The notes under the pieces were generated by a model, which had not been told where the DNA came from, made no database searches, and saw nothing but the letters and a program-made list of their open reading frames with translations. This document shows, in pieces, positions 9,094 to 64,000 of a DNA stretch of 64,000 bases. The stretch comes from Polyangiaceae bacterium (lineage in GTDB: Bacteria; Myxococcota_A; Polyangia; Polyangiales; Polyangiaceae), in the NCBI GenBank assembly GCA_050287085.1, contig JBNKBE010000003.1:15252-79251 (forward strand), written 5' to 3'. The position numbers and the translations under genes are program-made. The stretch's first letter is position 1, and the number at the start of each line of letters is the position of its first letter.

Positions 9094-9144
9094 CGTCGGA
9101 GTCAAGGCCAGGACTGGGAGTCCACCGTTCAAAGACGGCTTCCG

Positions 9145-9217
<73 letters not shown>

Positions 9218-9759: not shown

Positions 9760-10545
9760 GTGAAGCCCCTACTTTTTGGCCAGGCCGAAGCTCCGCTATT
9801 CGGCGTCTATCACCCCACGGGCTCGAGACGCCAACCCCGCTTGGGCGTGCTGCTTTGTTATCCCGGCCCGCGCGAATACAACTCTGCCCATTGGGCGTTT
9901 CGCAGGCTTGCCGGCTTGTTGAGCAAGGCCGGGCTCCCGACACTTCGCTTCGACTACCGCGGAACAGGTGACTCCGCGGGAGAGCTCGACCAGACCCGCA
10001 TAGCCGACTGGAGTGAGGACGTGGCTGTAGCCGCGCATGAGCTACGGGCTCAGTCCGGATGCCGTGAGCTCGCCATCGTTGCCATGCGCCTGGGCGCGCT
10101 CCCGGCCATGATGGCCTGCAACGCCGGACTGGGGCTCAACTCGCTTGTGCTCTGGCAGCCGGTCATGAGCGGCGAAGAGTACCTGTCTGAGCTTCGTCTG
10201 AGCCACGAGCGCCGGCGTATCGTACTCCTCCATGCCGCAAGAGAAGCCCATGGCGACCGTGAATTGCTCGGTTTCAACATGAGCGACGCCCAACGACAAG
10301 AATTGGCCGCACTGCGTGCTGAAGCGCATTGGCTGCGAAATGTTCCGCGCGTGACGATCGTTCATCCCCCAGCGAGTTTCGCCTTCTACCGTTATCTTGG
10401 AGCTGCCCCCCGCGAGGCCACCCAGCCCACGGTTATCGAGGTGACGGGAAGTGCCGCACCGAGGACGGAAAAGGCAATGCTCTCTAATGACGCCCTGGAG
10501 GCGATCGTCTCGGCCTTGCAGGCGGGAGGGCACTCCAATGACTGA
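9760..10545 (+). CDS. Alpha/beta-hydrolase-fold protein lacking the nucleophile Ser (exosortase-A-associated hydrolase 2-like)
   Basis: GTG 9760 VKPLLFG...LFGVYHP; LRFDYRGTGDS; nucleophile elbow reads AMRLGA; LVLWQPVMSG. Confidence 0.8.
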   Translation: MKPLLFGQAEAPLFGVYHPTGSRRQPRLGVLLCYPGPREYNSAHWAFRRLAGLLSKAGLPTLRFDYRGTGDSAGELDQTRIADWSEDVAVAAHELRAQSGCRELAIVAMRLGALPAMMACNAGLGLNSLVLWQPVMSGEEYLSELRLSHERRRIVLLHAAREAHGDRELLGFNMSDAQRQELAALRAEAHWLRNVPRVTIVHPPASFAFYRYLGAAPREATQPTVIEVTGSAAPRTEKAMLSNDALEAIVSALQAGGHSND

Positions 10546-11395
10546 GCAGGTGCTGGTGTTCGGAACCAGCAAGAACCTCGTGGGCCTCCTGACTCAACCT
10601 TCGGGCCAGAAAGAGTACCCCGTGGCCTTCGTCATGTGGAACGTGGGGATCAACCATCGCGTCGGCCCCTACCGCGTGTTCACCCAGTTGGCGCGTCGAT
10701 TGGCGTCTCTCGGCTTCACGGCCCTGCGCTTTGATGTATCGGGCCTTGGGGATAGCGAAGTGGCACGTAGCGACCGACGCCCGGAAGCCGAACGGCCTGC
10801 AGGGGACGTGCGCATGGCCTTCGACGCGATCGCGGCGCGCACCGGCATTGAGCGCTTTGTCGTCATCGGTTTCTGCTCCGGCGTCGACGCCGCCCACAAG
10901 CTAGCACTCGAAGATGAACGCGTGGTGGGAGCTGCCTTCCTGGAGGGATACGCGTTTCAAACACGGGGCTTTCGCATGAGGTACCCGAAGCGATTCTTCA
11001 ATCGACAGCGCTGGGAGCGCCGGCTGCGCATGCACTGGCCGCGCTTGTTCGGAGAGGTCCCCGGCTGGGAACAACAGCTCATGGCCCGCGAGTCCATCTA
11101 CGAGCGCAACTACCCGACCCCGGAAGAGTTCGGCCGCGAAGTTCGAACCATGGCCACTCGCGGCAAGCAGCTGCTCTTCGTGTACGTCGGAGGAGAATCC
11201 TCCTACGCCTATCGAGAGCAGTTGTTCGAGCATACGGGTCGTGGTGACTTCGAGCGTATGATTGATCTGGACTTCTTTGGGGATGCCGATCACACCTTTT
11301 TCTGTGAGGCGGATCGCAAGCGGATGGTGGAGCGCGTCTTGAGCTGGGCTCGGGAGCGCTTCAGCCTGGTGAGTCCCGCCTCCAGTGACGACTGA
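10538..11395 (+). CDS. Alpha/beta-hydrolase-fold protein with Cys elbow (exosortase-A-associated hydrolase 1-like)
   Basis: ATG 10538 overlaps the upstream stop; NVGINHRVGPYR, LRFDVSGLGDS, GFCSG elbow, ADHTF catalytic His. Confidence 0.85.
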   Translation: MTEQVLVFGTSKNLVGLLTQPSGQKEYPVAFVMWNVGINHRVGPYRVFTQLARRLASLGFTALRFDVSGLGDSEVARSDRRPEAERPAGDVRMAFDAIAARTGIERFVVIGFCSGVDAAHKLALEDERVVGAAFLEGYAFQTRGFRMRYPKRFFNRQRWERRLRMHWPRLFGEVPGWEQQLMARESIYERNYPTPEEFGREVRTMATRGKQLLFVYVGGESSYAYREQLFEHTGRGDFERMIDLDFFGDADHTFFCEADRKRMVERVLSWARERFSLVSPASSDD

Positions 11396-11468: not shown

Positions 11469-14400
11469 ATGCCGAATCTAAGTGAGGCCGAGCAACACCA
11501 TTTGGTTTTCGAGCTCAATCAGGGCGCAGACGACGGCGTTCCAAGCCGCACCATCGCCGAATTGTTCGCGGCTGAGCTGAGAGCCGGGCCCGAACGAATC
11601 GCTGTCGCGTGGCACGGTGGTAGCCTCAGCTACGCGGAGCTCGACGCAGCGAGCAGTCACCTTGCAGGGCGACTCAGCGACGCGGGTGCAAGCGAAGGCA
11701 AGGTGGTCGCGCTTTGCCTGGAACGAGGGCCGCTCGCCATCGTTGCGCTGCTGGCTACGGCGAAAGCCAGCGCCGCCTACATGCCGATTGAACCGACGTA
11801 TCCCGAAGATCGGATTCGTTTCATGCTCCAGGACGCAGCCCCCGTCGTGGTCCTGACGAGCACCGACTTGCGCTCGCAATTGCCCGGCGACTACGCCGGG
11901 ACGGTTTGGGAGCTACCGGCAACACCCGAGGTCGATGGCTCATCGCGACCAGCCCCGACGCAGCTCAACGGGCCCGAAAGCCCGGCGTACGTTATGTACA
12001 CCTCCGGCTCCACGGGCCAGCCGAAAGGTGTGGTGGTCCCTCAGCGCGCCATTGATCGCCTGGTGAAGCAGGCCCCCTTCGCCAAGCTCGACAGCGACAC
12101 ACGGATCCTGCAGGCGGCACCCATCGCATTCGACGCGTCAACCTTCGAGATCTGGGGCGCCCTCCTCAATGGCGGCACGGTCGTGCTCCACGACGAAGCA
12201 TTCCCGACGCCCGCTGGCCTCCGGCGCTCCATTCGGGAGCTGGGGGTCACCACCATGTGGCTGACGGCGGGTCTCTTCAACGCCGTCATAGATGAAGATC
12301 CACAGGCGCTCAGTGGCCTCTGCGAGCTGTTGACCGGAGGAGAAGCACTCAGCGTTCCACACGTCAGCAAGGCGCTGGCGGAACTACCCACGACGCAGCT
12401 GATCAACGGCTACGGCCCCACGGAAACGACAACGTTCGCGACTTGTTATCGCATTCCGCCAGACCGCGCACTGCCGCCCACCGGTGTGCCTATCGGCTAT
12501 GCCATCAGACAGACGCGGCTCTACGTGCTCGACGAAGAGCTACGCCCTGTTCGCGCGGGCGAGCTGGGCGAGCTCTACGTCGGCGGACGCGGCGTTTCGC
12601 TGGGTTACCTCAACCGAGACGACCTCACGGCGGAGCGCTTCTTCGATGACCCCTTCGTTGCTGGTGAGCGGCTCTACAAGACTGGCGATCAAGTCAGAAT
12701 GGACAACGATGGTCTGGTTCACTACGCAGGGCGGGCTGACCAACAGGTGAAAATTCGCGGCTTCCGAATCGAGCTCGGTGAGATCGAAGCCGCGCTGGTA
12801 GCTCGCCCTGGGGTGGCCCGAGCGGCCGTCAAGGTGATTGAGCAAGCCGGAAATAAGTCGCTGTGTGCGTACCTGGTGCCCGCCGACGGTCACCACAAGG
12901 ACGCGAAAGCGGTCATGGACGCGCTGCGGCAGTCGCTACCGGACTACATGGTCCCGTCGCGACACGTCTGGATCGACGAGATTCCGATCACGGCCAACGG
13001 CAAGACCAACTATGCCGCGCTGCCCGCTCCAGAACTTCAAGGAACTGAAGTACGCGGCGCTACTTCGGCGGCAGGCACCGCAGGCGCAATAGCGGCCGTC
13101 TTCGCCGAGCTGTTGGGCTTCGCTCAGGTCGACCCTGACGCCAACGTCTTCGATTTGGGGGCCAATTCGCTTCTCGTTGTGCGAGCGGTCACTCGCTTGC
13201 GAGATCGCGTTGGTATCGAGGTACCGGTCACAAAGGTCTTCCAGTATCCAACGCCGCGAACGCTGGGTGACTTCCTCGACGGGAACACGACGCAGAAGCG
13301 CAGCTCCACCAGGCAGCCAGCGCTGGCACAGCAGGATGGGCAGATCGCCATCATCGGTATCGCAGGTCGCTTTCCAGGCGCACTCAGCGTGGAGCAGCTC
13401 TGGGACAACCTCGTCGCCGGCAAGGACACCGTCGCCCATTTTGGACGCCATCAGCTGGATCCTTCTATTCCAGACGAGCTTGTCGCCGATCCACGCTACG
13501 TGCCCGCCCGCGGCGTCATTGACGAGCCTGAACACTTCGATGCTGCCTTCTTCGGCATCACGCCCAAAGAAGCCTTGCTCATGGATCCCCAGCAGCGCCT
13601 GCTCTTTGAGATTGCGTGGGAGGCTCTCGAATCATCCGGGTATGTTCCCGAAAAGTACCCTCGCCCAATAGGTGTCTTTGCAGGGAAATACAACGACACC
13701 TACTATGCCGAGCGTGTCCTCCAGTATCCTGAGCTGATCGCGGAACTCGGTGAGTTCCAGGTGATGGTCGCCAATGAGAAGGACTACGTCGCAACCCGAC
13801 TAGCCCATCGTCTGAATCTGCGTGGCCCCGCGGTGAGCGTGCATACCGCCTGCTCGACGTCGCTCGTGGCCATCACCATGGCCGTCTCGGCGCTCAGAGC
13901 CGGACAGTGCGGCATCGCCTTGGCGGGCGGCGCGTCGCTGACGGTCCCGATCAACAGCGGGCATCTCTACCAAGAGGGAGCGATGCTGTCTGCCGACGGC
14001 AAGACTCGCACTTTCGACCAAGACGCCAGCGGAACCGTCTTCAGCGACGGCGTCGCGATGGTAGTTCTGAAGCGACTCGGTGAAGCTGTGGCGGATGGCG
14101 ACACCATTTACGGGGTCATCCACGGCATCGGGCTGAATAACGACGGCGCCGACAAGGCGAGCTTCACAGCCCCAAGCATCGAGGGCCAAACAGACGTCAT
14201 CGCCATGGCCCAAGCCGATGCCGGATTGACGCCGGACGACATCGACTATGTCGAGACCCACGGCACCGCGACGCCTTTGGGCGATCCGATCGAGGTCGAA
14301 GCCTTGTCTCAGGCCTTCGCCGAACGCACGTCCGACCGTGGCCCAGTCCTGATCGGCTCTCTGAAGAGCAACATGGGGCATCTTGTCATCGCGGCCGGCG

Positions 14401-17400
14401 CCGCCGGCATGATCAAGACCGCCCTGGCCCTACAACGGGAGCTCATTCCGCCGAGTCTCCACTTCAAGAAGCTCAACCCGCGGATTCGTTTCAAGGAGGG
14501 AGCGTTTCGTGTCGTTGCGACCAGAACGCCGTGGCCGCGACGGTCGACCCCGCGCTTTGCCGGCATCAGCGCCTTCGGGGTGGGCGGTACCAACGCGCAT
14601 GTGGTGCTGGGCGAGCCACCACTAACAACGGCCACGGAGTCCACTCGCAGCAGCGAGCTACTGGTGTTGTCCGCTCGCTCCGATCAAGCACTGCAGCAGG
14701 CTTGTTCGCGCCTAGCCGACGCGCTGGACGCAAGCGAGCTGTGTCTGGCGGATGTAGCTCTGACCCTACACGCTGGACGGCGCGAGTTCCCGTTTCGACG
14801 CTACGTGGTCGCAGGCGATGGTCAAGAAGCGGCAAAGAAGCTGCGACAAGCGCAGGTCGTCAAGCGCACGCCCGGCGGTGCGCCCTCGGTGTTGTTCATG
14901 TTTCCCGGCCAAGGAAGTCAGCACCTCGGCATGGGAGCTCAATTGTACAGCGAATCGAGCACCTTTCGTGGCCATGTCGATCACTGCCTGACGCTCCTGG
15001 ACCCGGCGACCGCGACCCGGCTGCGAGAGCTCGTGTTCACGCCCTCGCCCGACGACGCCGCCGCTGCCGAACTGAACCAGACTTCATTGGCGCAGCCGGC
15101 GCTCTTCATCATGGAGTACGCAGTCGCGCAGTTGTGGTTGGAGCTCGGACTGAAGCCGCGGGCTCTCATCGGGCACAGCGTTGGAGAGTTCGTTGCCGCC
15201 GTCATCGCAGGCGTCATGACCCTCGAAGACGCCGTAGTCCTGGTCGCCGAACGAGGCGCGCGAATGCAGGCCCAACCCCCAGGGGGCATGCTTTCCGTAC
15301 GCCTACCGGCGTCGGCAGTCGAAGCGCGACTCACCGGCGACCTGGCGCTCGCGGCAGACAACTCGCCGCGCCTTTCGGTCGTGGCGGGTCCAAACGATCA
15401 AATCGACGCTTTCGCGGCCCTATTGGAGCGCGAGGGAGAATTGGCGAAACGTCTTCACACGTCACACGCTTTTCACTCGTCGATGATGCAACCCGTCGTC
15501 GAACCATTTCAGACGCGACTGCAGGCGCTCTCGCTCCGCCGGCCGCAGATTCCGATCATCTCCACGGTAACCGGACAGCTCATGAGCGACGAGGAAGCGA
15601 CCAGCCCGGCGTACTGGGCGGATCAGTTGCGCCTCGCCGTACGCTTCGGTCCCGCCGTCGCCGAAGCTCAGGTGCGGTATGACGCGCCATTGCTGCTCGA
15701 GGTCGGTCCTCGGCGAAGCCTGGCAACCTTGGCTCGGCAGCAAAACAGCAGCGGTACCAAGATCAATGCGGCCAGTTCACTGGGCGACAACAGCACAACC
15801 AACGGCAGCGCCTTCCGTGAAGCCTGTGGGGTGTTGTGGACTCAAGGCGTCAAGCTCGACCCGGAATCACTACACGCTCCCGCCCGTCGCATCCCGCTTC
15901 CCACCTATCCGTTTGAACGCCGCTTGTTTACCCTCCCGGCTCGGAGCCCCAGCCCGCCGCGTTCTCCCCTCCAAGACGCCGCAGCTCCCATAGAAAGCGG
16001 ACACGGTCAAACCTTCACCCCCGAAGTCGAGCCTTCCACCCCCAATAAGGACCGCCCTACCAAGATGAATGCCGCCGATCCACGCCACGACCAGACCCTG
16101 ACTACGCTCTGTGAGATTCTGGAGGAGACATCGGGTATCGATGTGACGCCGGACGACGCGGACGCACCGTTTCTCGAATTGGGACTGGATTCGCTCTTCT
16201 TGACCCAGTTTGCGATCACTGTGCAGCGCAAGTTTGACGTCGATGTCACCTTTCGCAAGTTGCAGGAAGACTGCCCCACCATGGCCACCCTTGCAGACTT
16301 GATCGTGGCAGAGCTGCCGCCGATGGCCGTGCGGACGCCCCCTATCTCGGAAGCCGCCGTCGCCCAGCCCAAAGCTCCAGCGCCCGGCCCCATCGCGGCC
16401 CCCGAAGTTCCCGCTGCCCAAGTTCTAGCCGCCCAAGTTCCAGCTCCGGCGTTCATGGCACCGACCACGCCGTCGCCACTGCCCACGACAAGCGCTGCGG
16501 TCAATACCGGGGTGCTTGGACTGATCGAACAACAGCTGCAACTGACAGCGCAACTGCTCAGAGCCGTTTCGGGCGGACAAGCGCAGGCAGTACCGGTCCC
16601 TGCCGCGACCGTCGCCGCACCGGTTCCCCAACCCCTACCTCAAACCCAGGCCCCAGCACCCACCCCGGCCTTGCCGCCCCAGCGCGAACTGCTTGACGCC
16701 CCCGAGGGCCCGCCCCTGAGCACCCGCTCCGTTCGACGCTCCGATGGGGTTGGCGCAAACGATCTGGAGGCCCCCCCAAGCACGCGCAGCGCTCGCACCA
16801 TGATGAAGTACGACGTCAAGAAGGCGTTTGGTGCCATTGCGCGCATTCACACGGCGGGCGACGATATCGCCCCGCAGCAGCGAGCCAAACTGGACGCCTT
16901 CATTCGCCGATACACCGAGCGCACGGCAGGGTCGAAGAAGTTCGCGCAGGACAACCGCGAACAAATGGCCGATCCACGAGTGGTCACAGGCTTCAAGCCG
17001 ACCACCAAGGAACTTGTTTACCCGATAGTAGTAGAGCGTTCGAAAGGCGCCCATCTTTGGGACGTCGACGGCAACCGCTACGTGGATGCTCTCAACGGTT
17101 TTGGCCTGAGCCTTTTTGGGTGGCAGCCGGACTTCGTCACGAAGGCCATCGAAGAACAGCTGCATCGTGGGCACGAAATTGGCCCGCAGCACCCACTGTC
17201 CGGCGAAACCGCATCACTGCTGTGCCAGCTAACAGGATTCGATCGCGCCGCGTTCTGCAATACCGGCTCGGAAGCGGTAATGGGCTGTACCCGAGTTGCC
17301 CGCACCGTAACCGGACGCAAGACCATCGCGCTCTTCACTGGCGCCTACCATGGTATCTTCGACGAGGTGCTCGTGCGGGGCACCAAGAAGCTGCGTTCAA

Positions 17401-18365
17401 TCCCCGCGGCGCCAGGGATTCTGCCCGAAGCGATGAGCAATACGCTGGTGTTGCCCTATGGCACCCCCGAGTCGCTCGAGATCCTGAAGAATCGAGCCGA
17501 TGACCTCGCCGCCATCTTGGTAGAGCCGATTCAAAGCCGCCGTCCCGACTTCCGACCGAAGGAGTTCCTCGCTGAACTGCGACAACTGACGGAACGAGCC
17601 GGGGTCGTCTACATCTTTGACGAAGTCGTATGTGGCTTCCGCCTATGCCCTGGCGGAGCCCAGGAGTACTACGGCATCAAGGCGGACATCGCTTCGTACG
17701 GTAAAGTCATTGGTGGCGGCCTGCCGATCGGCGTGATCGCGGGACAGCGACGTTTCATGGATGCGCTGGATGGTGGCTTTTGGCAATTCGGTGATGCATC
17801 AAGCCCACCGGTTGGCGTCACCTACTTCGCCGGAACATTCGTACGCCACCCGCTGGCACTGGCCGCGTGTAATGCCGTTTGCAAGCACCTTCTACAGGAA
17901 GGCCCAGAGCTGCAACAACGACTCAATGCCAAGGTTGAAGCGTTCGTCGGCAACGTGCGAGACTTTCTCTCAGAAGTCGGCGCACCGATCGAAATCAAGA
18001 GTTTCGCGTCGCTTTGGCGGCTGGTGTACACCGAAGACCAGCCACTGGGAGACGTGCTGTTCTATATGCTGCGCGATCGCGGGATACACATCTACGATGG
18101 GTTTCCTTGTTTCTTCACGACCGCGCATACCGACGAGGACTTCGCAGCACTGCAGACGGCCATTCAGGAGAGCGTCAAAGAGATGCAAGCATCCGGCTTT
18201 CTCTCATCAACGGGGCGAGCCCCAGCCGGTCTCCCTGCCGCTTCGGCCAAGCCGCCCGTGCCTGGTGCCCGACTGGGTCGCGACCGTGATGGCACACCGG
18301 CGTGGTTCGCCCCCCACCCAGATAACCCGAAGAAGTTTGTGAAAGTCGGACCAGCGGGAGCCTAG
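11469..18365 (+). CDS. Hybrid NRPS/PKS: A-PCP-KS-AT-ACP-class III aminotransferase
   Basis: A: YTSGSTGQPKG, NGYGPTE, YKTGD, NGK. PCP: DLGANSLL. KS: TACSTS, HGTATPLGD, NMGH. AT: GHSVG and HAFH (malonyl type). ACP: LGLDSL. Aminotransferase: NTGSEA, YHG, DEVVCGFR, YGKVIGGG. Confidence 0.95.
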   Translation: MPNLSEAEQHHLVFELNQGADDGVPSRTIAELFAAELRAGPERIAVAWHGGSLSYAELDAASSHLAGRLSDAGASEGKVVALCLERGPLAIVALLATAKASAAYMPIEPTYPEDRIRFMLQDAAPVVVLTSTDLRSQLPGDYAGTVWELPATPEVDGSSRPAPTQLNGPESPAYVMYTSGSTGQPKGVVVPQRAIDRLVKQAPFAKLDSDTRILQAAPIAFDASTFEIWGALLNGGTVVLHDEAFPTPAGLRRSIRELGVTTMWLTAGLFNAVIDEDPQALSGLCELLTGGEALSVPHVSKALAELPTTQLINGYGPTETTTFATCYRIPPDRALPPTGVPIGYAIRQTRLYVLDEELRPVRAGELGELYVGGRGVSLGYLNRDDLTAERFFDDPFVAGERLYKTGDQVRMDNDGLVHYAGRADQQVKIRGFRIELGEIEAALVARPGVARAAVKVIEQAGNKSLCAYLVPADGHHKDAKAVMDALRQSLPDYMVPSRHVWIDEIPITANGKTNYAALPAPELQGTEVRGATSAAGTAGAIAAVFAELLGFAQVDPDANVFDLGANSLLVVRAVTRLRDRVGIEVPVTKVFQYPTPRTLGDFLDGNTTQKRSSTRQPALAQQDGQIAIIGIAGRFPGALSVEQLWDNLVAGKDTVAHFGRHQLDPSIPDELVADPRYVPARGVIDEPEHFDAAFFGITPKEALLMDPQQRLLFEIAWEALESSGYVPEKYPRPIGVFAGKYNDTYYAERVLQYPELIAELGEFQVMVANEKDYVATRLAHRLNLRGPAVSVHTACSTSLVAITMAVSALRAGQCGIALAGGASLTVPINSGHLYQEGAMLSADGKTRTFDQDASGTVFSDGVAMVVLKRLGEAVADGDTIYGVIHGIGLNNDGADKASFTAPSIEGQTDVIAMAQADAGLTPDDIDYVETHGTATPLGDPIEVEALSQAFAERTSDRGPVLIGSLKSNMGHLVIAAGAAGMIKTALALQRELIPPSLHFKKLNPRIRFKEGAFRVVATRTPWPRRSTPRFAGISAFGVGGTNAHVVLGEPPLTTATESTRSSELLVLSARSDQALQQACSRLADALDASELCLADVALTLHAGRREFPFRRYVVAGDGQEAAKKLRQAQVVKRTPGGAPSVLFMFPGQGSQHLGMGAQLYSESSTFRGHVDHCLTLLDPATATRLRELVFTPSPDDAAAAELNQTSLAQPALFIMEYAVAQLWLELGLKPRALIGHSVGEFVAAVIAGVMTLEDAVVLVAERGARMQAQPPGGMLSVRLPASAVEARLTGDLALAADNSPRLSVVAGPNDQIDAFAALLEREGELAKRLHTSHAFHSSMMQPVVEPFQTRLQALSLRRPQIPIISTVTGQLMSDEEATSPAYWADQLRLAVRFGPAVAEAQVRYDAPLLLEVGPRRSLATLARQQNSSGTKINAASSLGDNSTTNGSAFREACGVLWTQGVKLDPESLHAPARRIPLPTYPFERRLFTLPARSPSPPRSPLQDAAAPIESGHGQTFTPEVEPSTPNKDRPTKMNAADPRHDQTLTTLCEILEETSGIDVTPDDADAPFLELGLDSLFLTQFAITVQRKFDVDVTFRKLQEDCPTMATLADLIVAELPPMAVRTPPISEAAVAQPKAPAPGPIAAPEVPAAQVLAAQVPAPAFMAPTTPSPLPTTSAAVNTGVLGLIEQQLQLTAQLLRAVSGGQAQAVPVPAATVAAPVPQPLPQTQAPAPTPALPPQRELLDAPEGPPLSTRSVRRSDGVGANDLEAPPSTRSARTMMKYDVKKAFGAIARIHTAGDDIAPQQRAKLDAFIRRYTERTAGSKKFAQDNREQMADPRVVTGFKPTTKELVYPIVVERSKGAHLWDVDGNRYVDALNGFGLSLFGWQPDFVTKAIEEQLHRGHEIGPQHPLSGETASLLCQLTGFDRAAFCNTGSEAVMGCTRVARTVTGRKTIALFTGAYHGIFDEVLVRGTKKLRSIPAAPGILPEAMSNTLVLPYGTPESLEILKNRADDLAAILVEPIQSRRPDFRPKEFLAELRQLTERAGVVYIFDEVVCGFRLCPGGAQEYYGIKADIASYGKVIGGGLPIGVIAGQRRFMDALDGGFWQFGDASSPPVGVTYFAGTFVRHPLALAACNAVCKHLLQEGPELQQRLNAKVEAFVGNVRDFLSEVGAPIEIKSFASLWRLVYTEDQPLGDVLFYMLRDRGIHIYDGFPCFFTTAHTDEDFAALQTAIQESVKEMQASGFLSSTGRAPAGLPAASAKPPVPGARLGRDRDGTPAWFAPHPDNPKKFVKVGPAGA

Positions 18366-18433: not shown

Positions 18434-19321
18434 GTGAGAGGGCACCTGCTCGTGGCGGCGGCCGGCCTCAGCTTGCTCGCATTGGCCGCCTCCGGGCTGG
18501 TTGGGTGGCGCGCCTTCCGAGCCGAGTACAACTGCTTTCATCCTCGCCCTCGCCCTGAGCCTGCCCTCGTCGATTACTTTGCCCCGGAGCTGAAGGTTGA
18601 GAACGCCGTCTTCTCGGACGCTCGCGAGCCGGTATTGACGGGCTGGTACCGAGCCTCCACCAATGGAAGGTGTGTGATTCTTGCACACGGCTCGCTGGGC
18701 GACAGAGCCTCGCTCGCCGCCGAAACCCGTTTGCTAGCGCAGGCCGGCTTCGGCGTCGCGACGCTGGATCTACCTGGCCATGGTAGCAGCCACGGCAAGG
18801 TAGAGTGGGGCCAGGCGGAGCGGAACGCTCTCTCGACCGCATTGCGTTTCGTTCTTGCGCAACAACCAGAGCTGCAGGTGGGGGTGCTGGGCTTCTCAAT
18901 GGGGGGCCACATCGCCATTCAATGGGCCGCTCGAGAGTCGCGTGTTCAAGCGATTGCTGTGATGGGTACCCCGCCCGACCCCACAGAGTTCACGCGTTAC
19001 GAATACCGCCGATTCGGACCGCTCACACAGTGGCCAGCGTTCGCCGGCATATACCTGGGTGGCATGGACTTAGGAGAGCCAACCCCCCTGCAGCTCGCGG
19101 CGAGCTTGGCGCCACGCCCACTGCTGGTCATCATGGGCGAGCAAGATCCGCACTTGCCAGCCACGATGGCCCGGAAGCTATTCGATGCGGCGCTCCAGCC
19201 CAAACAATGGTTCGTCGTGCCAAAAGCGGGCCACGGCCGCTACGCGGACGCCGCCCCAAGCCAGTTCAAGGCAGCGCTGATATCGTTCTTCAGCGCCAGC
19301 CTCTCGCCTCGCTCCGAGTGA
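18434..19321 (+). CDS. Alpha/beta hydrolase with N-terminal membrane anchor or signal and canonical triad
   Basis: Hydrophobic N-terminus; LAHG, DLPGHGSS, GFSMGG, GEQD, AGH. Confidence 0.88.
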   Translation: MRGHLLVAAAGLSLLALAASGLVGWRAFRAEYNCFHPRPRPEPALVDYFAPELKVENAVFSDAREPVLTGWYRASTNGRCVILAHGSLGDRASLAAETRLLAQAGFGVATLDLPGHGSSHGKVEWGQAERNALSTALRFVLAQQPELQVGVLGFSMGGHIAIQWAARESRVQAIAVMGTPPDPTEFTRYEYRRFGPLTQWPAFAGIYLGGMDLGEPTPLQLAASLAPRPLLVIMGEQDPHLPATMARKLFDAALQPKQWFVVPKAGHGRYADAAPSQFKAALISFFSASLSPRSE

Positions 19322-25977: not shown

Positions 25978-26892
25978 CTAGGAAAAAAGATGTGGCGCGT
26001 ACGCCGCCGTAGGTGGGTCAATCGACCTTCCCACGAGCTTCTTGAGCCGCATTTTTCCGCCCGACAGTGCCGTCATGGCGGTCGACATAAGCTGATCACG
26101 CCACACGGTCTCACCGATCGGGGGCGGCGTCAGCCCCAGCCGCCGAAGTTTGAAGTTGGCCTGGTAGGCGGCCCTACGCCGACGTGTCGAGTCGGTGTAG
26201 AAGGTGAAGCTCATCGTGACCGACGGGCCATCGCCGTTTTCGACCATGTGCGGACTTGTGCTCGGCATGAAAGCCCCTTGTCCCGGCTCGAGGTCGAAAA
26301 CCATGGCTCGCTCTTTCATCCGCTCCGCAAAGGTCACGAGATCTCGCGAGTGCCAGCCGTGGAAGCGTTCCAACGCGGCTTCCGAAACGACCTCTCGGTC
26401 CATGGGGTCCCAAATGTAGACACGTTTGCGGCCCTGAAGCTGAACCAAGAAATTGTGTTCGGCGTCGATGTGATAGGGTGTGATGGCGCCCGGCGAGGTG
26501 ATGAAGATCCACCCACCCCGGTAGGACATACCGGGATCGGTGACGTCTACGAGGGGCTTGACGCTGTCGAGCACCTCATCGACAAGTGTGCGGTACACCG
26601 GGTCGGTCTGGACGTTCAGGAGCGACATCCAAGCTTGGGCCGCGGCCACGTCGGCAAGCATGTCACTGGCGCTCTTCTTCGTAGGATGAATCTTCGGCGC
26701 ATCGTGAAACGATGTACCAGCCTCGGCGGCCGCTGAATGGCTCCGCACCTGGTTCTGCGCGTCCAATCGGCTACCCAGTTCACGAAGCTTATCGAGCTGC
26801 AAGAGTGGGTGCTCACAGAGGTCGTGAGTCACAGGGGTTACTACCCACGGTTCAAAGCGGCTGTTCGGGAGTTTTATTCGCGGCGTCGTCAT
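25978..26892 (-). CDS. Cupin-like/JmjC-type Fe(II)/2-oxoglutarate oxygenase family protein
   Basis: FITSPGAITPYHIDAEHNFLVQLQGRK (HxD) and PHMVEN (distal His). Start at MTTPRIKL. Confidence 0.8.
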   Translation of the reverse strand: MTTPRIKLPNSRFEPWVVTPVTHDLCEHPLLQLDKLRELGSRLDAQNQVRSHSAAAEAGTSFHDAPKIHPTKKSASDMLADVAAAQAWMSLLNVQTDPVYRTLVDEVLDSVKPLVDVTDPGMSYRGGWIFITSPGAITPYHIDAEHNFLVQLQGRKRVYIWDPMDREVVSEAALERFHGWHSRDLVTFAERMKERAMVFDLEPGQGAFMPSTSPHMVENGDGPSVTMSFTFYTDSTRRRRAAYQANFKLRRLGLTPPPIGETVWRDQLMSTAMTALSGGKMRLKKLVGRSIDPPTAAYAPHLFS

Positions 26893-27022: not shown

Positions 27023-27823
27023 ATGTTTTCGCGATTGCAGACTCTTCCCGGCGTAAAGCAAGTCATCAAGGCACGCTTCAACCGCGGGTTCGAAGGCGAC
27101 TGGGCCGGCAGCTTCCGTGGCGTCTTCAGTACCTTCGAGCAAGCGTCTCTCAGTGCGCCAGGCACCAAACCGCTCGGCTACAACCATGACGCCGCCAGCG
27201 AAATGTATGCGGAGCGCCTGCGAGAAGTAGTGGCGAGCGACTACCCCGTCATGTTTTGGCTGGGCAAGTTGATGGCCGGCGGCGCCCGGAACCTCTTCGA
27301 CCTCGGCGGACACGTCGGACTGGCCTGTCACGCCTACCAGCGCTACCTCGACTTCCCGGACGACTTCAGCTGGACGGTCTATGATGTCCCCGCGGTTCGC
27401 GCCACGGGCGAACGCCTCGCCGGGGAGCTGAGTTCGCGCATTTCGCCGCGGTTCACGGGCGACACGGCAGACGGCGCTGGCGTGGATGTCTTGCTCAGTG
27501 CTGGCGCCCTACAATACATCGACGAACCCCGTTTCGACGCGTATCTGGCGTCTTTGAAGCGGCTTCCTCGCAACATTCTTCTCAGCAAAATACCCCTTGG
27601 ACACAATCCAGAGTTCGTAACACTGCAGAATATTGGCACAGCCTATTGCCCCTACCGCATCTTCAACGACCACGAGTTCGTCGCAGGGCTGAAGCGCCTA
27701 GGTTACGAGGTACGTGACCGTTGGTTGAATGCTGAGGGCTGCAACATGGCGCTCAACCCCGAGCTCAGCGTGCCCAACTACACCGGCATGCTGCTGCAGC
27801 TGCCAATCGCATCGACGAGCTAG
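27023..27823 (+). CDS. Putative SAM-dependent methyltransferase (TIGR04325-like)
   Basis: FRGVFSTFEQA, DYPVMFWL, LFDLGGHVG motif I, WTVYDVP, SAGALQYI, FVTLQ. Confidence 0.8.
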   Translation: MFSRLQTLPGVKQVIKARFNRGFEGDWAGSFRGVFSTFEQASLSAPGTKPLGYNHDAASEMYAERLREVVASDYPVMFWLGKLMAGGARNLFDLGGHVGLACHAYQRYLDFPDDFSWTVYDVPAVRATGERLAGELSSRISPRFTGDTADGAGVDVLLSAGALQYIDEPRFDAYLASLKRLPRNILLSKIPLGHNPEFVTLQNIGTAYCPYRIFNDHEFVAGLKRLGYEVRDRWLNAEGCNMALNPELSVPNYTGMLLQLPIASTS

Positions 27824-31779: not shown

Positions 31780-34332
31780 CTACTGGGTAATCGCGGGTGA
31801 TGGCTGTCCCGAATAGACAGCATTGCACCGCGGATGCACTAGGTCGCTTCCCGGACAATCGAGGCCCTGAAAATCTGCGAGGGAGCGGGTGGGCTCTGCG
31901 TACCCGTCCGGAATCGCCAAGTTAGCGAAGGTGCGAAAGTACTGCAGGCAGGCATCCCGCCACCAACGGGCCTCGTAGTGCTGAATCTGCAGCAACTCCG
32001 AGACCTCCGCGAAGCGGCGGACGTCCACCCGACTTTCCACGGAATCCCAAGCAGCGCGCATGTCGCCAACAGCATCGACCCCTCGACTGTAGCGGTGGAC
32101 CAGCTCCTCCCACAGGGTGCGTCCTGAGCTCAGAGGCTCCTGCCAGCCAACGTGGTGGAAGAACAGGAGCAGGTCCTCCGGCACGGTATCCCGATTGGCC
32201 AGCATCTCGCGCAGGGGTCCGGCATATTGAGACACTGCGTTGCTTCCTGAAGCGGTACGATCAAAACCAAGCCCTTGCGCATCCGCCTTGTGGAAGTAGA
32301 CCGGATTCCATTCGGGCCGCCCCAGATTGCTCACCCACGGCCCCGGTCCGTAGTGATGATCGCTACCCATGATGTGTGCGAGCCCCAAGGGCGTCATGTA
32401 GTCGACGAGTGCTTGGCGGGACGCCATCATCATCGTGACGACGGGCATCAATAACGCAGGATCATTGCCGAAGGTCTGACGTGCCCATTCGGTAGCTACA
32501 GCCTCCGCACCCAGATCGGGATCCCAAGCCATACGCCCAAACGCGTACCAATTGGCCTGATTGAAGTGAGATCCGCTCCAATTCTCATCGCTGCCGACGT
32601 TGGCAACGCCCGCTATCACCGACCTGTCGTAGCCATGGAGCGAGCCGTCCACGACCCGCGCAACCGTAGAGCCCTCGCCGTCCACGTGAGTATCGCTTTG
32701 CAGCACCTCTTCGAAGACAGAGCCCACGTAGGCCAGATGCGAATCCTGCCCCAGGTACTCTTTGGTGATTTGGAGCTCCAGGGCCAAGGGGGTGTCGGGC
32801 ATCGCTCCAAAAAGTGGCGAAAACGGCTCTCGCGGCTGAAAGTCCAAGGGACCGTTTTTTACCTGAACAACGACATTCGGCAAAAACTGCCCGTCCAGCG
32901 GCTTGAACTCGTCGTAGGCCTCCCTGATGCGATCGATCGAGCCCCCCTCCGAATAGACAAAGGCCCGCCACATGACGATCCCACGGTCTCCCAGGGCCTC
33001 GGCCAGCATGTTGGCCCCGTCCGCATGAGAGCTTTGGTAGGTCTGCGGCCCCGGTTGTCCTTCGGAATTCGCCTTCACCAGAAAGCCCCCAAAATCAGGG
33101 ATCCGTTCATAGATTTCGTCGGCTTTCGACGCCCACCAAGCGCGAACCCCGGCGTTCTTGGGATCTGCCGTACCTTGCCCTCCGATTTCCATCGGTGCGC
33201 TGAAGCGTGCAGTGAGGAATACTCGAATCCCATAGGGACGAAAGACATCGGCCAGCGCAGCCACTTTGTCCAAGTACTGCGGAGTGAGCACTTGTGCGTC
33301 CGCGTTCACATTCGTCAACACCGTGCCGTTGATCCCAATCGACGCGCAGGCCCGCGCGTACTCGGTGTAGCGGGGAGATAAGGTCCCAGGCAGGTTGCCC
33401 CAATCCCACAGCGAGCGCCCCGCGTAGCCACGCTCAACGCTGCCGTTGAGATTGTCCCAATGATTCAACAGGCGATGCTCGATCTTCGGCGCGCCTTCCA
33501 GCATCAAGTTGCTGAGGGGGCGATGGCTTTGCAGATGACGCAGGAGCGCAAAGGCGCCGTACAACGCGCCAACCTCGGTGTTGCCAACAATCACCGTGGT
33601 TGGGTGTCCTTCAACTTCGGCATTAGTGACGACGTAAGCGTCGTCAGCGAGAGCGTCGAGGCTTACGTCCTGCGGTAGCGACGCCACTTCTGCCAGCGTC
33701 GCGGGGGTGCCGACCAACACCCCACCCTCGGCGTCCACGGCCGCGTTGACCGCGATTTGCTGACCGGTGAGGCCAGCCAGTCCCAACACCAGCTCATCGC
33801 GTGCCGCCCGCAGGGTCTCGGTCTGTCCCGGCTCGACAACGTAGCGGAACGCGTCCTGGTACTGGCCTGCACGAGGCGCCACGGTGACCGCCGGATAGCG
33901 CAGCCATAGCTGCTCCCCACTCTCGTTGGGCGCGGGCCTGGACGGCGGGTCGTATACCAACTCGTCCTCATCATCGCCCCCTACCGCAGCGCCACCAGCG
34001 TTGGGCTCCACCCCGGCACTTCCCGCGAGCGGCCCTGACCCGGCGGCTCCCTCGCCTCCGGTGTTGGCGCCGCCCTGCGACTGAGCGCCGCCCTGCGACT
34101 GAGCGCCGCCCTGCGACTGAGCGCCGCCCTGCGACTGAGCGCCGCCCTGCTGGCCACCGCCCTGCGACTGAGCGCCGCCTCCCCCGCCCGAAACGTGGGT
34201 CGCGCCCGACGTCGCCCCTGCCGTGGACATCGCGCCGGGACTAGGAGCCATCGAATCGTCCGAACAGGCCGGCACGACACACACGCACGATACCACGACG
34301 ACAAGGCGCGGCAGAAAGGATCGAATGGACAT
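31780..34332 (-). CDS. aguA: Alpha-glucuronidase (GH67), lipoprotein
   Basis: LWLRY, LNHWDNLNGSVERGYAG, FLVKANSEGQPGP, KNGPLDFQPREP, ELQITKEYLGQ, YMTPLGL..HHYGP; lipobox VPAC. Confidence 0.95.
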   Translation of the reverse strand: MSIRSFLPRLVVVVSCVCVVPACSDDSMAPSPGAMSTAGATSGATHVSGGGGGAQSQGGGQQGGAQSQGGAQSQGGAQSQGGAQSQGGANTGGEGAAGSGPLAGSAGVEPNAGGAAVGGDDEDELVYDPPSRPAPNESGEQLWLRYPAVTVAPRAGQYQDAFRYVVEPGQTETLRAARDELVLGLAGLTGQQIAVNAAVDAEGGVLVGTPATLAEVASLPQDVSLDALADDAYVVTNAEVEGHPTTVIVGNTEVGALYGAFALLRHLQSHRPLSNLMLEGAPKIEHRLLNHWDNLNGSVERGYAGRSLWDWGNLPGTLSPRYTEYARACASIGINGTVLTNVNADAQVLTPQYLDKVAALADVFRPYGIRVFLTARFSAPMEIGGQGTADPKNAGVRAWWASKADEIYERIPDFGGFLVKANSEGQPGPQTYQSSHADGANMLAEALGDRGIVMWRAFVYSEGGSIDRIREAYDEFKPLDGQFLPNVVVQVKNGPLDFQPREPFSPLFGAMPDTPLALELQITKEYLGQDSHLAYVGSVFEEVLQSDTHVDGEGSTVARVVDGSLHGYDRSVIAGVANVGSDENWSGSHFNQANWYAFGRMAWDPDLGAEAVATEWARQTFGNDPALLMPVVTMMMASRQALVDYMTPLGLAHIMGSDHHYGPGPWVSNLGRPEWNPVYFHKADAQGLGFDRTASGSNAVSQYAGPLREMLANRDTVPEDLLLFFHHVGWQEPLSSGRTLWEELVHRYSRGVDAVGDMRAAWDSVESRVDVRRFAEVSELLQIQHYEARWWRDACLQYFRTFANLAIPDGYAEPTRSLADFQGLDCPGSDLVHPRCNAVYSGQPSPAITQ
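34067..34178. repeat. Coding 18-bp tandem repeat (GGAQSQ units) in the GH67 linker
   Basis: GCGCCGCCCTGCGACTGA repeated about 5 times with one interrupted unit. Confidence 0.85.
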
Positions 34333-34742
34333 GAGCTTACCCCGGGGCTGCATACCAAGTCTGCGCCAGTAGGAACACATTCTCCCGCTCGCGCCGACCG
34401 CGGTGCCATTGTAGACGCGCGCCCCGGCCCAAAGCAGCCTCCGCACGCCGATCGTCCGCTGGATATCCTGTTCGTGACGCAATTTGCCTGTAGTTCCAAG
34501 ATTCTAAGGGCAGCGGCGCAGCTCTCATACCCTGCGCGAAAGTCCCGATGGACGCCTGGCGCCGGTGTCGAAGTCACCCGCGTGTCCCTTGCACACGACC
34601 GCGAAACGCCGCCGGCGACGCTGGCACGTCGACTCCTCCGGCCTTTTGGGGCGACCGCCGTTCTCGGTCATAGGCTGCCTTGCGACCGAGCGCATGGGCC
34701 ATAGCGCTCAAGGCTGCCCGGGCTCTGCCGTACGTCTCGGGC

Positions 34743-37700
34743 ATGGGTTGGAGCGACTACGAGATAACCAAGACGCTAAGCAAGGGCAGCGTCACCGCCG
34801 TCTACCGCGCCGTGCGCAAGCACGACGGGGCAAGACTAGTGATAAAGACATTCGTCACGGAGTATCCACCCGCGCACCTCCGCGCACGTCTCGAGCGCGA
34901 GGCTCATAGGCTCCGTCGCGTGCAGTCATCAAATGTCGTTGAGTTGATCGCCTATGAGCCGAGCGAATCCCTTCCGTTATTAGCGCTTGCGGACGTAGAC
35001 GGAGTCCCCCTGTCGGGATTGGGACCCTTCCCGATCTCGAGCTTTCTGTCGATCGCGCTACAACTGACTCGCGGCCTGGCGGCTCTGCACGCGAGCGGCA
35101 TTATCCACCGAGATGTAAAGCCGGACAACGCGGTGCTCAACCAGGCGACGGGCAGGGCCTATTTGATCGACCTCAGCAGCGCGAGCCTGGAGGGGGAGCA
35201 CGAGCTCACCACCAAGAGTGGTACCGAACCGGTCTCTCCACCCTACATGTCACCCGAGCAGAGCGGACGTATGAATCGCTCGGTCGACTACCGCACCGAC
35301 TTCTACTCACTCGGGATCACGTTCTACGAACTCCTGAGTGGATCGCTTCCCTTCGAAGCAGAAGACGCGATGGGGTGGGTTCACTGCCACCTGTCGCGAG
35401 CAGTACCGGACGTCCGCGAACGCATGGCCTCCGTCCCACAAACGCTGGCCCTCATCATTGCCAAGCTGACGGAAAAGGACCCGGATGCGCGATACCAGGG
35501 TTGCGCCGGCCTGCTAGCAGATCTCGAGCGCTGTCGCGACGGCCTCGAGCGTAGCGGGGAAGTGCCGCACTTCGAACCTGGCGCCTCTGACCTTTCCCCG
35601 GTGTTCAGATTGCCTACGCAGGTCTTCGGCCGCAACGCGGAGATACAGGACTTGGTGGAACAGTTCGAGGCATCACGGTCTTCGAGCGCACGCCTTCTCT
35701 TGGTTGAAGGAGCCGTTGGCGTGGGCAAGAGCGCAGTGCTAAGCGCCCTGCAGCCCAACGTGCAGTTGGCCGGTGGCTTCTTCGCACGCGGCAGCTTTGA
35801 TCGACTGGGTCAGGCCATCCCCTACAGCGGTGTCTTGAAAGCTTTAGACCAAGTCATGTCAACACTGCTTGCGCTCTCAGAGCAAGAGTTGGACGTGCAG
35901 CGCTCCAGAATCTTGAGCCGTGTTGGCCCCAACGGACGTGTTCTGACTGAGTTGCTACCGAGCAGCGAGCTGGTGCTGGGAGCTCAACCCGCATTGGCAG
36001 AGCTTGGACCCGCTGAGGCGCTGCGCCGTCTCAAGGCCGTGTTATCGGGCTTGCTTCAAGCACTCGCCACCGCAGAACATCCTCTCGTCCTTCTGCTCGA
36101 CGATCTCCAATGGGCCGACCCGGGAACGCTCGAGTTGCTACGGGATTGGTTTGTGGAGCAACAACTCGAATGCCTACTGGTGGCAGGTGGCGTACGCACC
36201 GACGAAGATGAGAACCAAGCCGTCACCAAGTCCCTGGCTCAGCTACGGGGTGAAGCCCCCAGCGCGGTCACCGAGCTCAAGCTTGGTCCCTTGTCGCGCC
36301 CTGCACTCGAGTCCCTCGTCGGTGCCGCCATCGGGAAAGACTCCCCCTTGCGCAGTCCCCTCGGCGAGATGTTGGAGCAGAAGACGGCGGGAAACCCATA
36401 TTTTGCCGGTTCACTGCTCCGGGAGCTCGCCCGCCAAAGCATATTACGCTTCGACTCCGAGGCGGCGCATTGGACCTGCGACCTAGCTGCAGCCAGCGCC
36501 ATCCGGGTCAGTGACAACGTAGCAGGCATGATGCTTGACCGGCTGCGCTCTCTCCCCGAAGCAGTCCTACACCTACTTCAAGTCGCCGCCTGCTTCGGCA
36601 TCCAAACTCAGATGGATGCCCTGGCAAGAGTAGCAAAGCTCGAGTGTACCGACGTTGAGACCATCAGTGCCGCGGCGGTCAAGGAAGACTTGGTTGTCCT
36701 CATACGGCAAGAGGATCGTTCGATCTTGCGTTTTACGGACGAACGCGTGCAACAAGCCGCCTACGACCTGTCGACGCCAGACAGACGAGCCGAAATTCAT
36801 CTTGCCATTGCACGCTATCAAAACACGCAGCCGACAAGCCACGGCCTCCTGGAGCGGGTGAATCACTACAATAGAGGCTGCCAGCACATCACGGATGCGG
36901 CGGAATTCGACACGCTGGTCGAGCTCAACCGCAAGGCGGGCGACCAGGCGATGCAGAGCGCCGCCTATCCGAGCGCCCTCAGCTACTTCCAGCAAGCCAG
37001 TCAGGCCCTGACAGACGCAAGCGACGAAGTCCGAAAGCGAAACAGCTTCATCGTCGGCCTGGCGCTAGCGGAATGTCTCTATCAGACGACGCAGCTGGAC
37101 GCAGCCGCACGCCAATGCGAACGGCTATTGGAACACGCTGCGGACGAGCTGGAACGTGCCCACGTGACGGTCTTCCAGGCACGGCTAGCGGAGCATGCCG
37201 GGGACTTTCAAGGTACCCTGGACCTCTTGCGCGCCGGACTCGCGCAGCTGAAGATCGAACTGCCCGCCGATCATGATGCCATCGGCCAAGCTATCGGCGG
37301 CGGCATTGAGAAGATGCAGGCGCACCTCGCCCAGACACCGCTGGCGGACATTCCCAAGCTGCCTCTGATGGAAAACCAGGCGATGGCCCTGGCAATGCGG
37401 ATGCTCTACCACGTCGTGCCAAGCGCGATCCAGACCTACCCGCCCCTCTTCATTCTCGCTGAGCTGCTGATGTTCGATCTCACGCTACGAGAGGGACTCA
37501 CGCCCTACGCCTGCAAGAACGTCATGGACTGCGGTATTATCCAGGGCTCCGTTCTGGGTGACTACCGCCGCGCGTTCGACTTCGGACAAAGCGCTTTCGC
37601 CCTGATCGAACGGTTCCGGCCGACCGCGATCGAGTCCTCCGCGGCATTCGTCCAGGCGGCATTCATCGCTCATTGGTCCATGCCCGTGGAAGAGTCCTTA

Positions 37701-63799: not shown

Positions 63800-64000
63800 T
63801 GCAACAACAGGGTGGTTGCAGCTCTGCCGGGCACAAGGTGTTTCGCCGGCGCTAGCAGCCGGTGTGTTGGGACGTATCGATGCGAAGCAAGCTCCAGCCT
63901 TCCATCGCCCGACAGTCCAGCCTGAGTACAACTACGCTCCGTTTCGCTCCAGGCGCACACCGTCCCCTCGCACCCAACAAGGAGGCCGGTGTTTGGGTCT

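Follow-up and report, generated by a model that had tools for sequence, protein, structure and literature searches.

A hybrid NRPS-PKS cassette of a Polyangiaceae bacterium predicted to build a valine-derived 3,4-diaminoacyl unit

Results

A seven-gene cassette around an aminotransferase-terminated synthetase

The window (the whole stretch of 64,000 nucleotides that was analysed) holds a cassette of seven genes, among them an intact open reading frame for a hybrid synthetase that runs from an adenylation domain to an in-line aminotransferase (Table 1). This frame begins with ATG immediately downstream of a GGAGG element, and scans for promoters and terminators gave results at chance level. When the domains of the window were used as queries, the hybrid protein and the convergently transcribed partner NRPS were the only NRPS/PKS proteins found in the 6.2-Mb assembly. 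The tRNA-Ala gene was considered as an integration site and not adopted, its 3' end facing away from the cassette. Elsewhere in the window lie a glycoside hydrolase family 67 (alpha-glucuronidase-type) gene (31780-34482, minus strand), a gene for a 1991-residue signalling protein with Ser/Thr kinase, AAA, GAF, Hpt and HATPase domains (34680-40655, plus strand) and a gene for a 1630-residue protein with seven DUF4215 stretches and a PA14 domain (59039-63931, minus strand).

Table 1. Features of the locus, in positions of the window
Feature	Position	Strand	Basis or remark
tRNA-Ala (CGC) gene	9144-9217	-	~540 bases upstream of H2
H2, alpha/beta-hydrolase fold, TIGR03101-like (below cut-off), Arg at nucleophile position; probable pseudo-enzyme partner	9760..10545	+	predicted start
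H1, alpha/beta hydrolase, TIGR03100-like (below cut-off), Cys at nucleophile position and His; probable release/transfer enzyme	10538..11395	+	overlaps H2 stop
Hybrid synthetase A-T-KS-AT-ACP-aminotransferase, 2298 aa, intact	11469..18365	+	ORF, Pfam domains, motifs
Starter adenylation domain A1, DAFWLGGTFK (Val-type code)	11544..13028	+	code residues, tree
Peptidyl carrier T1, LGANS, Ser567	13089..13277	+	Pfam and motif
KS, Cys795-His931-His971, NEKDY and HTACSTS	13341..14618	+	Pfam and motif
AT, GHSVG (S1237) and HAFH (1333-1336)	14895..15851	+	Pfam and motif
ACP, LGLDS, Ser1575	16104..16328	+	Pfam and motif; approximate bounds
Class III PLP aminotransferase domain, FDE (2050), YGKVIGGG (Lys2079)	16866..18206	+	Pfam, motif, structure match
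C-terminal motif, probable docking element	18255..18362	+	common to aminotransferase-terminal family members
H3, serine alpha/beta hydrolase, GFSMG, hydrophobic N-terminus	18434..19321	+	lies between the synthetase genes, also in L073
Partner NRPS C-A-T-C*-A*-T, 2155 aa	19341..25808	-	domains, motifs, tree
JmjC/Cupin_8 dioxygenase	25978..26892	-	predicted start; 53-54% identity with genes adjoining family loci L021 and L079
TIGR04325-family methyltransferase (above cut-off)	27023..27823	+	predicted start; recurs beside hydrolase-type family loci

The synthetase carries the parts expected for valine, malonate and transamination

In the hybrid protein, Pfam returned AMP-binding, PP-binding, KS, AT, a second PP-binding and Aminotran_3 domains in that order. 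None of the 11 Pfam families listed for the protein is a KR, and the stretch between AT and ACP is about 106 residues long, which leaves no room for one; the KR that follows KS-AT in a statine-forming module thus has no counterpart here. The HAFH motif of the AT, the missing KR and the retained PLP lysine within YGKVIGGG had been pointed out in the earlier note on this DNA, and all three were recovered, the two motifs at the residues given in Table 1. The NEKDY and HTACSTS motifs of the KS form what we take to be an NRPS-to-PKS signature, and an AT with GHSVG and HAFH is presumably of the malonyl type.

The code residues of A1 (222, 223, 226, 264, 288, 290, 314, 322, 323 and 512) read DAFWLGGTFK, with the positions placed by hand from PheA numbering and consistent with an alignment to LgrA. 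PMC9113097 prints the same ten residues for malacidin MlcM, where they are assigned to Val, so that the code described in the earlier note as close to a Val code is in fact identical to one at 10 of 10 positions. A1 scores 414 bits on the amino acid adenylation model TIGR01733 (cut-off 317), and in a quick tree of 83 rows picked out of 179 domains it falls within a 14-row clade (SH-aLRT 99) of mostly GGTF-type codes. The starter of the nearest relative, L073, has the code DALWLGGTFK, one position away. We regard valine as the probable substrate of A1.

The best PDB match of the aminotransferase is the MycA domain 6kfm (E 5e-127), far ahead of the best match to a GSA aminomutase (E 1.5e-52). 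HemL models are the top scorers for this domain in NCBIfam, all below cut-off (246 against 527 bits for TIGR00713), and the domain is embedded in a larger protein, unlike stand-alone HemL. As in proteins of the MycA/ItuA type, a class III aminotransferase with its PLP Lys and Asp follows in line right after the ACP of a module that has no KR; the fatty acyl ligase that starts such proteins is missing, and A1 carries an amino-acid code instead. Beta-transamination of the tethered ketone is, on these resemblances, very probable. With an exact Val code, a malonyl-type AT, no KR and a MycA-like aminotransferase that has the conserved Lys, valine plus malonate plus beta-transamination is the most likely chemistry of the synthetase. 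The 3,4-diamino-5-methylhexanoyl group that the earlier note had named as the product is a reasonable prediction, at somewhat better than even odds, for an ACP-bound intermediate; it would not be the end product, as the partner NRPS would take over.

The partner NRPS is predicted to add one residue

The first module of the partner NRPS is intact, with HHIVCDG in its C1 domain, and the code of its A2 domain (DISDITGVWK) belongs to a 5-row group that is sister to the Gly-type domains of the family in the quick tree. Judged by these features, the protein should add one Gly-like residue, the identity of which is uncertain. In the following module, C2 reads HNIIWDG and has lost the catalytic His to Asn, and the third A domain is degenerate, its core motifs gone, while the terminal T domain retains GGHS with its serine; no thioesterase was found in this NRPS. 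The third module is therefore predicted to be catalytically dead and at most a relay carrier. A dead third module with a retained terminal carrier also occurs in L073, L085 and L087, which points to an old, maintained state. The Variovorax partner NRPSs (L001:26666-31669 and L002:26630-31636) end C-A-T-C-T; they lack a third A domain altogether and thus retain a terminal relay carrier in a different way.

The C-terminal motif of the hybrid synthetase is present in 65/71 family proteins that end at the aminotransferase and in 0/7 that continue into a C domain, and a DFDPF-like motif lies ahead of 54 of the 85 C1-type domains. Both of these probable docking motifs are found in the synthetase pair of the window, which supports the convergent NRPS as acceptor of the chain. 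The same convergent layout with five core genes recurs in L073, from another Polyangiaceae assembly, and the arrangement is thus not an accident of assembly.

A hydrolase pair probably replaces the thioesterase

The best NCBIfam matches of the two hydrolases ahead of the synthetase are TIGR03100 for H1 (77 bits, cut-off 168) and TIGR03101 for H2 (84 bits, cut-off 203), and a fold search with H1 returned only generic alpha/beta hydrolases at 13-20% identity. The Cys at the nucleophile position of H1 and a late His are invariant in 8 aligned sequences, and the nucleophile position of H2 is an invariant Arg in 10. A model of the H1-H2 complex scored 0.84, the best of 3 controls 0.00, on a scale whose reference mark is reached by 116/157 solved complexes versus 2/215 mismatched pairs and is rough for these proteins with their shallow alignments. 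Between runs, at least 79% of contacts coincide, and the partner pLDDT is at least 81. These models support binding of H1 and H2 to each other, although the score may partly reflect likeness to solved hydrolase dimers.

H1 was detected in 16/301 genomes of the phylum. Its surroundings were examined for 11 of the 19 matches outside the window's own genome, and in 11/11 they include NRPS or PKS genes without a match to the thioesterase query; H2 is present in 10 of them. In one locus (L129:3-4256), H2 is fused behind the last NRPS carrier and H1 is the next gene. An aminotransferase accompanies only 2/11 and a glycan gene only 4/11, which suggests that H1/H2 form a general release module of thioesterase-less lines. 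Across the 80 family loci described below, 56 have only a thioesterase, 9 only H1/H2, one has both and 14 have neither, many of these 14 being incomplete. The pair of a Cys-hydrolase and a pseudo-hydrolase is, by this pattern, a probable replacement for the missing thioesterase.

A homologue of H3 (36% identity) adjoins another H1/H2-terminated NRPS, in genome G230 (L118:12499-19577). An open frame of 2183 residues in G230 was considered as a fusion with H1 and ruled out, since the NRPS sits in a different frame.

The cassette belongs to a family found in several phyla

A scan of GTDB genomes gave 147 candidate stretches, of which 87 were confirmed and 80 loci kept, from Bacteroidota, Pseudomonadota, Myxococcota, Verrucomicrobiota, Chloroflexota and Bdellovibrionota. 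Cultured members include Variovorax paradoxus, Pedobacter heparinus, Hymenobacter and Spirosoma. The window shares with the family the domain order, a partner NRPS with an A domain of the Gly clade, and the docking motifs. In sequence sets that also cover the window, four plasmid loci and the myxobacterial loci, the PLP Lys is kept in 77/78, the KS Cys in 86/86 and the AT Ser in 81/81, and the gap between AT and carrier is 82-160 residues wherever measured. This conservation argues for amino acid plus malonate plus amination as the common logic of the family, with valine as one variant.

The aminotransferase is present in 68/80 loci. In L009, L013, L060, L081 and L083 the ACP runs straight into a C domain with no match to an aminotransferase, and L017 has none either, so amination seems dispensable in parts of the family; L013 contains two consecutive KS-AT-ACP modules. 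Among 69 readable starter codes, 34 are Pro-type, three Val-type (GGTF), three Thr-type, three Asx-type and 26 other, the class names being taken in part from the table of PMC9113097. The building block had been called uncommon; it is not peculiar to this genome, the module being common and its starter variable among the 80 loci. The window is a further member of this family, to which it contributes a starter of the Val type, a second code that is altered, a third module that is dead and the predicted heterodimer of H1 and H2.

No described product of an amino-acid-primed, beta-aminating line was found in open-licence papers and preprints, a body of literature with most subscription chemistry journals outside it. 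One candidate, PMC12819058, concerns in its accessible part a fatty-acid-primed lipopeptide and does not fit.

Glycan genes recur beside the cassette in relatives

Genes for glycosyltransferases, flippases or sugar transferases flank 48/80 family loci. Where at least 8 kb of non-synthetase DNA is available, glycan genes flank 45/62 loci, compared with 25/279 windows of 20 kb from this genome, an inflated contrast in that these very loci supplied the profiles, the control comes from another taxon and kin are not independent. In Variovorax paradoxus the synthetases are followed, in order, by a PPTase gene, two hydrolase-like genes and genes for a polysaccharide export protein, a tyrosine autokinase and a sugar transferase, the last three co-oriented with the cassette; the Aliiroseovarius synthetase borders a polysaccharide cluster. 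In L088, L089 and L073, from the same family and order as the present bacterium, the cassette adjoins flippase, glycosyltransferase or acyltransferase genes.

Glycan genes are absent from the 64-kb window, including about 10 kb around the cassette, and the only glycan match on contig C3 is about 310 kb from it. Nor was a glycan match seen in the relative in genome G021 (L085/L086), in the Spirosoma plasmid copy or in 17/62 well-flanked relatives. Two neighbours of the L073 cassette have matches (45% and 24% identity) on contig C10 of the present assembly, where a polysaccharide locus (L094:6810-19998; G000:C10, ~79-92 kb) holds GT4, GT2, flippase, GH9 and Wzy-type genes. These matches would fit a past separation of the cassette from its polysaccharide locus; the C10 locus is a candidate source of the acceptor.

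Discussion

From the domains, motifs, gene order and family patterns described above we infer the following substrates, reactions and acceptor. A1 would load L-valine (or a close aliphatic amino acid) onto T1, and the KS would extend it once with malonyl-ACP to 4-amino-3-oxo-5-methylhexanoyl-S-ACP. In place of a KR, the in-line PLP aminotransferase would turn the beta-ketone into an amine, so that the ACP carries a 3,4-diamino-5-methylhexanoyl group. The partner NRPS, transcribed convergently, would then dock, and its C1 domain would couple the diamino unit to the small, Gly-like residue of A2; the third module would elongate nothing and serve at most as a relay carrier. H1 and H2 together would replace the missing thioesterase: H1 would take the chain on its Cys and transfer it, the likeliest acceptor being a sugar or a repeat unit of some surface polysaccharide whose genes lie elsewhere in the genome. 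A diaminoacyl-peptide donor for a surface polysaccharide is our best reading of the locus, tentative as a whole path, with a probability of about 0.4.

The starter might instead be another small aliphatic residue (Ile, Abu or Ala) or a mixture, and the 3,4-diamino acid a different one. Ten-residue codes of the A1 type can admit these residues, and the specificity of such domains may be relaxed; moreover, the clade of A1 includes the divergent codes DILIIGGIMK, DALLLGCVIK and DVYVIGCVAK, and its terminal branch in the quick tree is long (0.79). With the complete match to a Val-assigned domain and the single difference from L073 on the other side, we judge this unlikely. The main weakness of the best reading lies in the gamma-amine, which, unprotected, could release the chain from the enzyme by cyclising. 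Gamma-aminoacyl thioesters whose amine is free can form a five-membered lactam, and such amines are usually protected; yet the Pfam search of the synthetase returned no formyl-, acyl- or methyltransferase domain before A1, no N-protecting domain or gene is visible at the cassette, and no conserved N-protecting enzyme was found in the family, where a single GNAT query matched 2/91 sequence sets and the N-terminal extensions of related synthetases are C-domain fragments or unassigned. The amine may therefore cyclise or be modified by an enzyme that escapes notice. The free vicinal diamine would then never accumulate, whether because the gamma-amine closes on the thioester (to a tetramic acid or 4-amino-pyrrolidinone), because it is masked, or because an aminotransferase domain whose best NCBIfam scores, though below cut-off, are those of HemL moves the amine so that a 3-amino-4-oxo acid results. 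We consider this improbable, since the C1 domain of the partner is intact and conserved, which argues that the tethered chain is passed on, and since the domain is much nearer to the MycA transaminase than to the aminomutases.

The same assembly chemistry could finish with H1/H2 (or H3) releasing a small diffusible molecule. This might be the diaminoacyl-amino acid in linear form, or a ring that one of its two amines has closed, such as a seven-membered diazepanedione. The window and G021 copies and the 17 well-flanked relatives without glycan genes would suit such a product, as would the widely varying starter code, which is usual in small-molecule families, and the JmjC and methyltransferase genes, which could tailor it once free. 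This outcome is possible, if on balance doubtful, in view of the flippase, glycosyltransferase or acyltransferase genes beside L088, L089 and L073 and the co-oriented polysaccharide export, autokinase and sugar transferase genes of Variovorax paradoxus. Alternatively, the cassette could be a decaying relic split from its polysaccharide locus, with a dead third A domain, a C2 that has lost its His, no adjacent PPTase gene (the one match in the genome is on contig C17) and a patchy occurrence among close kin (6/41 genomes, its own included). Both long frames are unbroken, however, the remaining catalytic motifs are intact and the same dead module keeps its terminal carrier in L073, L085 and L087, all of which makes decay very improbable.

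The proposed donor can be compared with known systems. MycA (mycosubtilin synthetase A; 6kfm, 6kfr and 6kfu), which is primed with a fatty acid, likewise extends by a KS without a KR, and its ACP is followed by a class III aminotransferase in line and that by a C domain. The beta-amino fatty acid it makes goes into a cyclic lipopeptide, whereas the line in the window has an amino acid primer and a cis AT, is followed by one residue and lacks a thioesterase. According to the accessible part of PMC3870968, the MycA aminotransferase domain inserts the amino group with glutamine as donor. Table 2 of the same 2013 paper, again as far as its text is accessible, lists Pedobacter heparinus C6XWU5 with the layout A-CP-KS-AT-CP-PLP1 and the predicted product Nrp-Mal-Gly-Pk, uncharacterised. 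The domain order of C6XWU5 is identical to that of the window synthetase. In a P. heparinus locus of the family (L047) the starter is Pro-type, the second code Asx-type and a thioesterase is present, where the window has a Val-type starter and no thioesterase. Each chemical step has its precedent in MycA; for priming with an amino acid, the open-licence literature yielded no described product. Statine-type modules also make a gamma-amino acid from an amino acid and one malonate, the Val-derived unit of spiruchostatin being an example built with a KR; they reduce the ketone with that KR and act on an N-acylated chain, in contrast to the aminotransferase and free amine here. Exosortase A system-associated hydrolases 1 and 2 (TIGR03100 and TIGR03101) are an adjacent pair with the alpha/beta-hydrolase fold, like H1/H2, which differ in scoring far under the cut-offs and in lying beside thioesterase-less synthetases. 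The peptidylamido-glycan on type B flagellin of Clostridium difficile was considered as an NRPS-made decoration; the accessible part of PMC5207246 contains no NRPS term and names other enzymes, and it therefore offers no precedent.

A broader proposal, put forward with considerable reserve and in our judgement rather unlikely as a whole, is that the family is an undescribed multi-phylum route in which an NRPS-PKS line would build beta,gamma-diamino-acyl peptides for attachment to surface polysaccharides, with a thioesterase or a heterodimer of a Cys-hydrolase and its dead paralogue as transacylase. The myxobacterial branch would work in trans to a distant polysaccharide locus and use its dead third module as a hand-over carrier. 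Biocatalysis would gain a useful tool from an assembly-line route to beta,gamma-diamino acids, which are amino analogues of statine, and if the reading is true, an NRPS-PKS that adds a cationic peptide to a surface polysaccharide would represent a new job for such enzymes.
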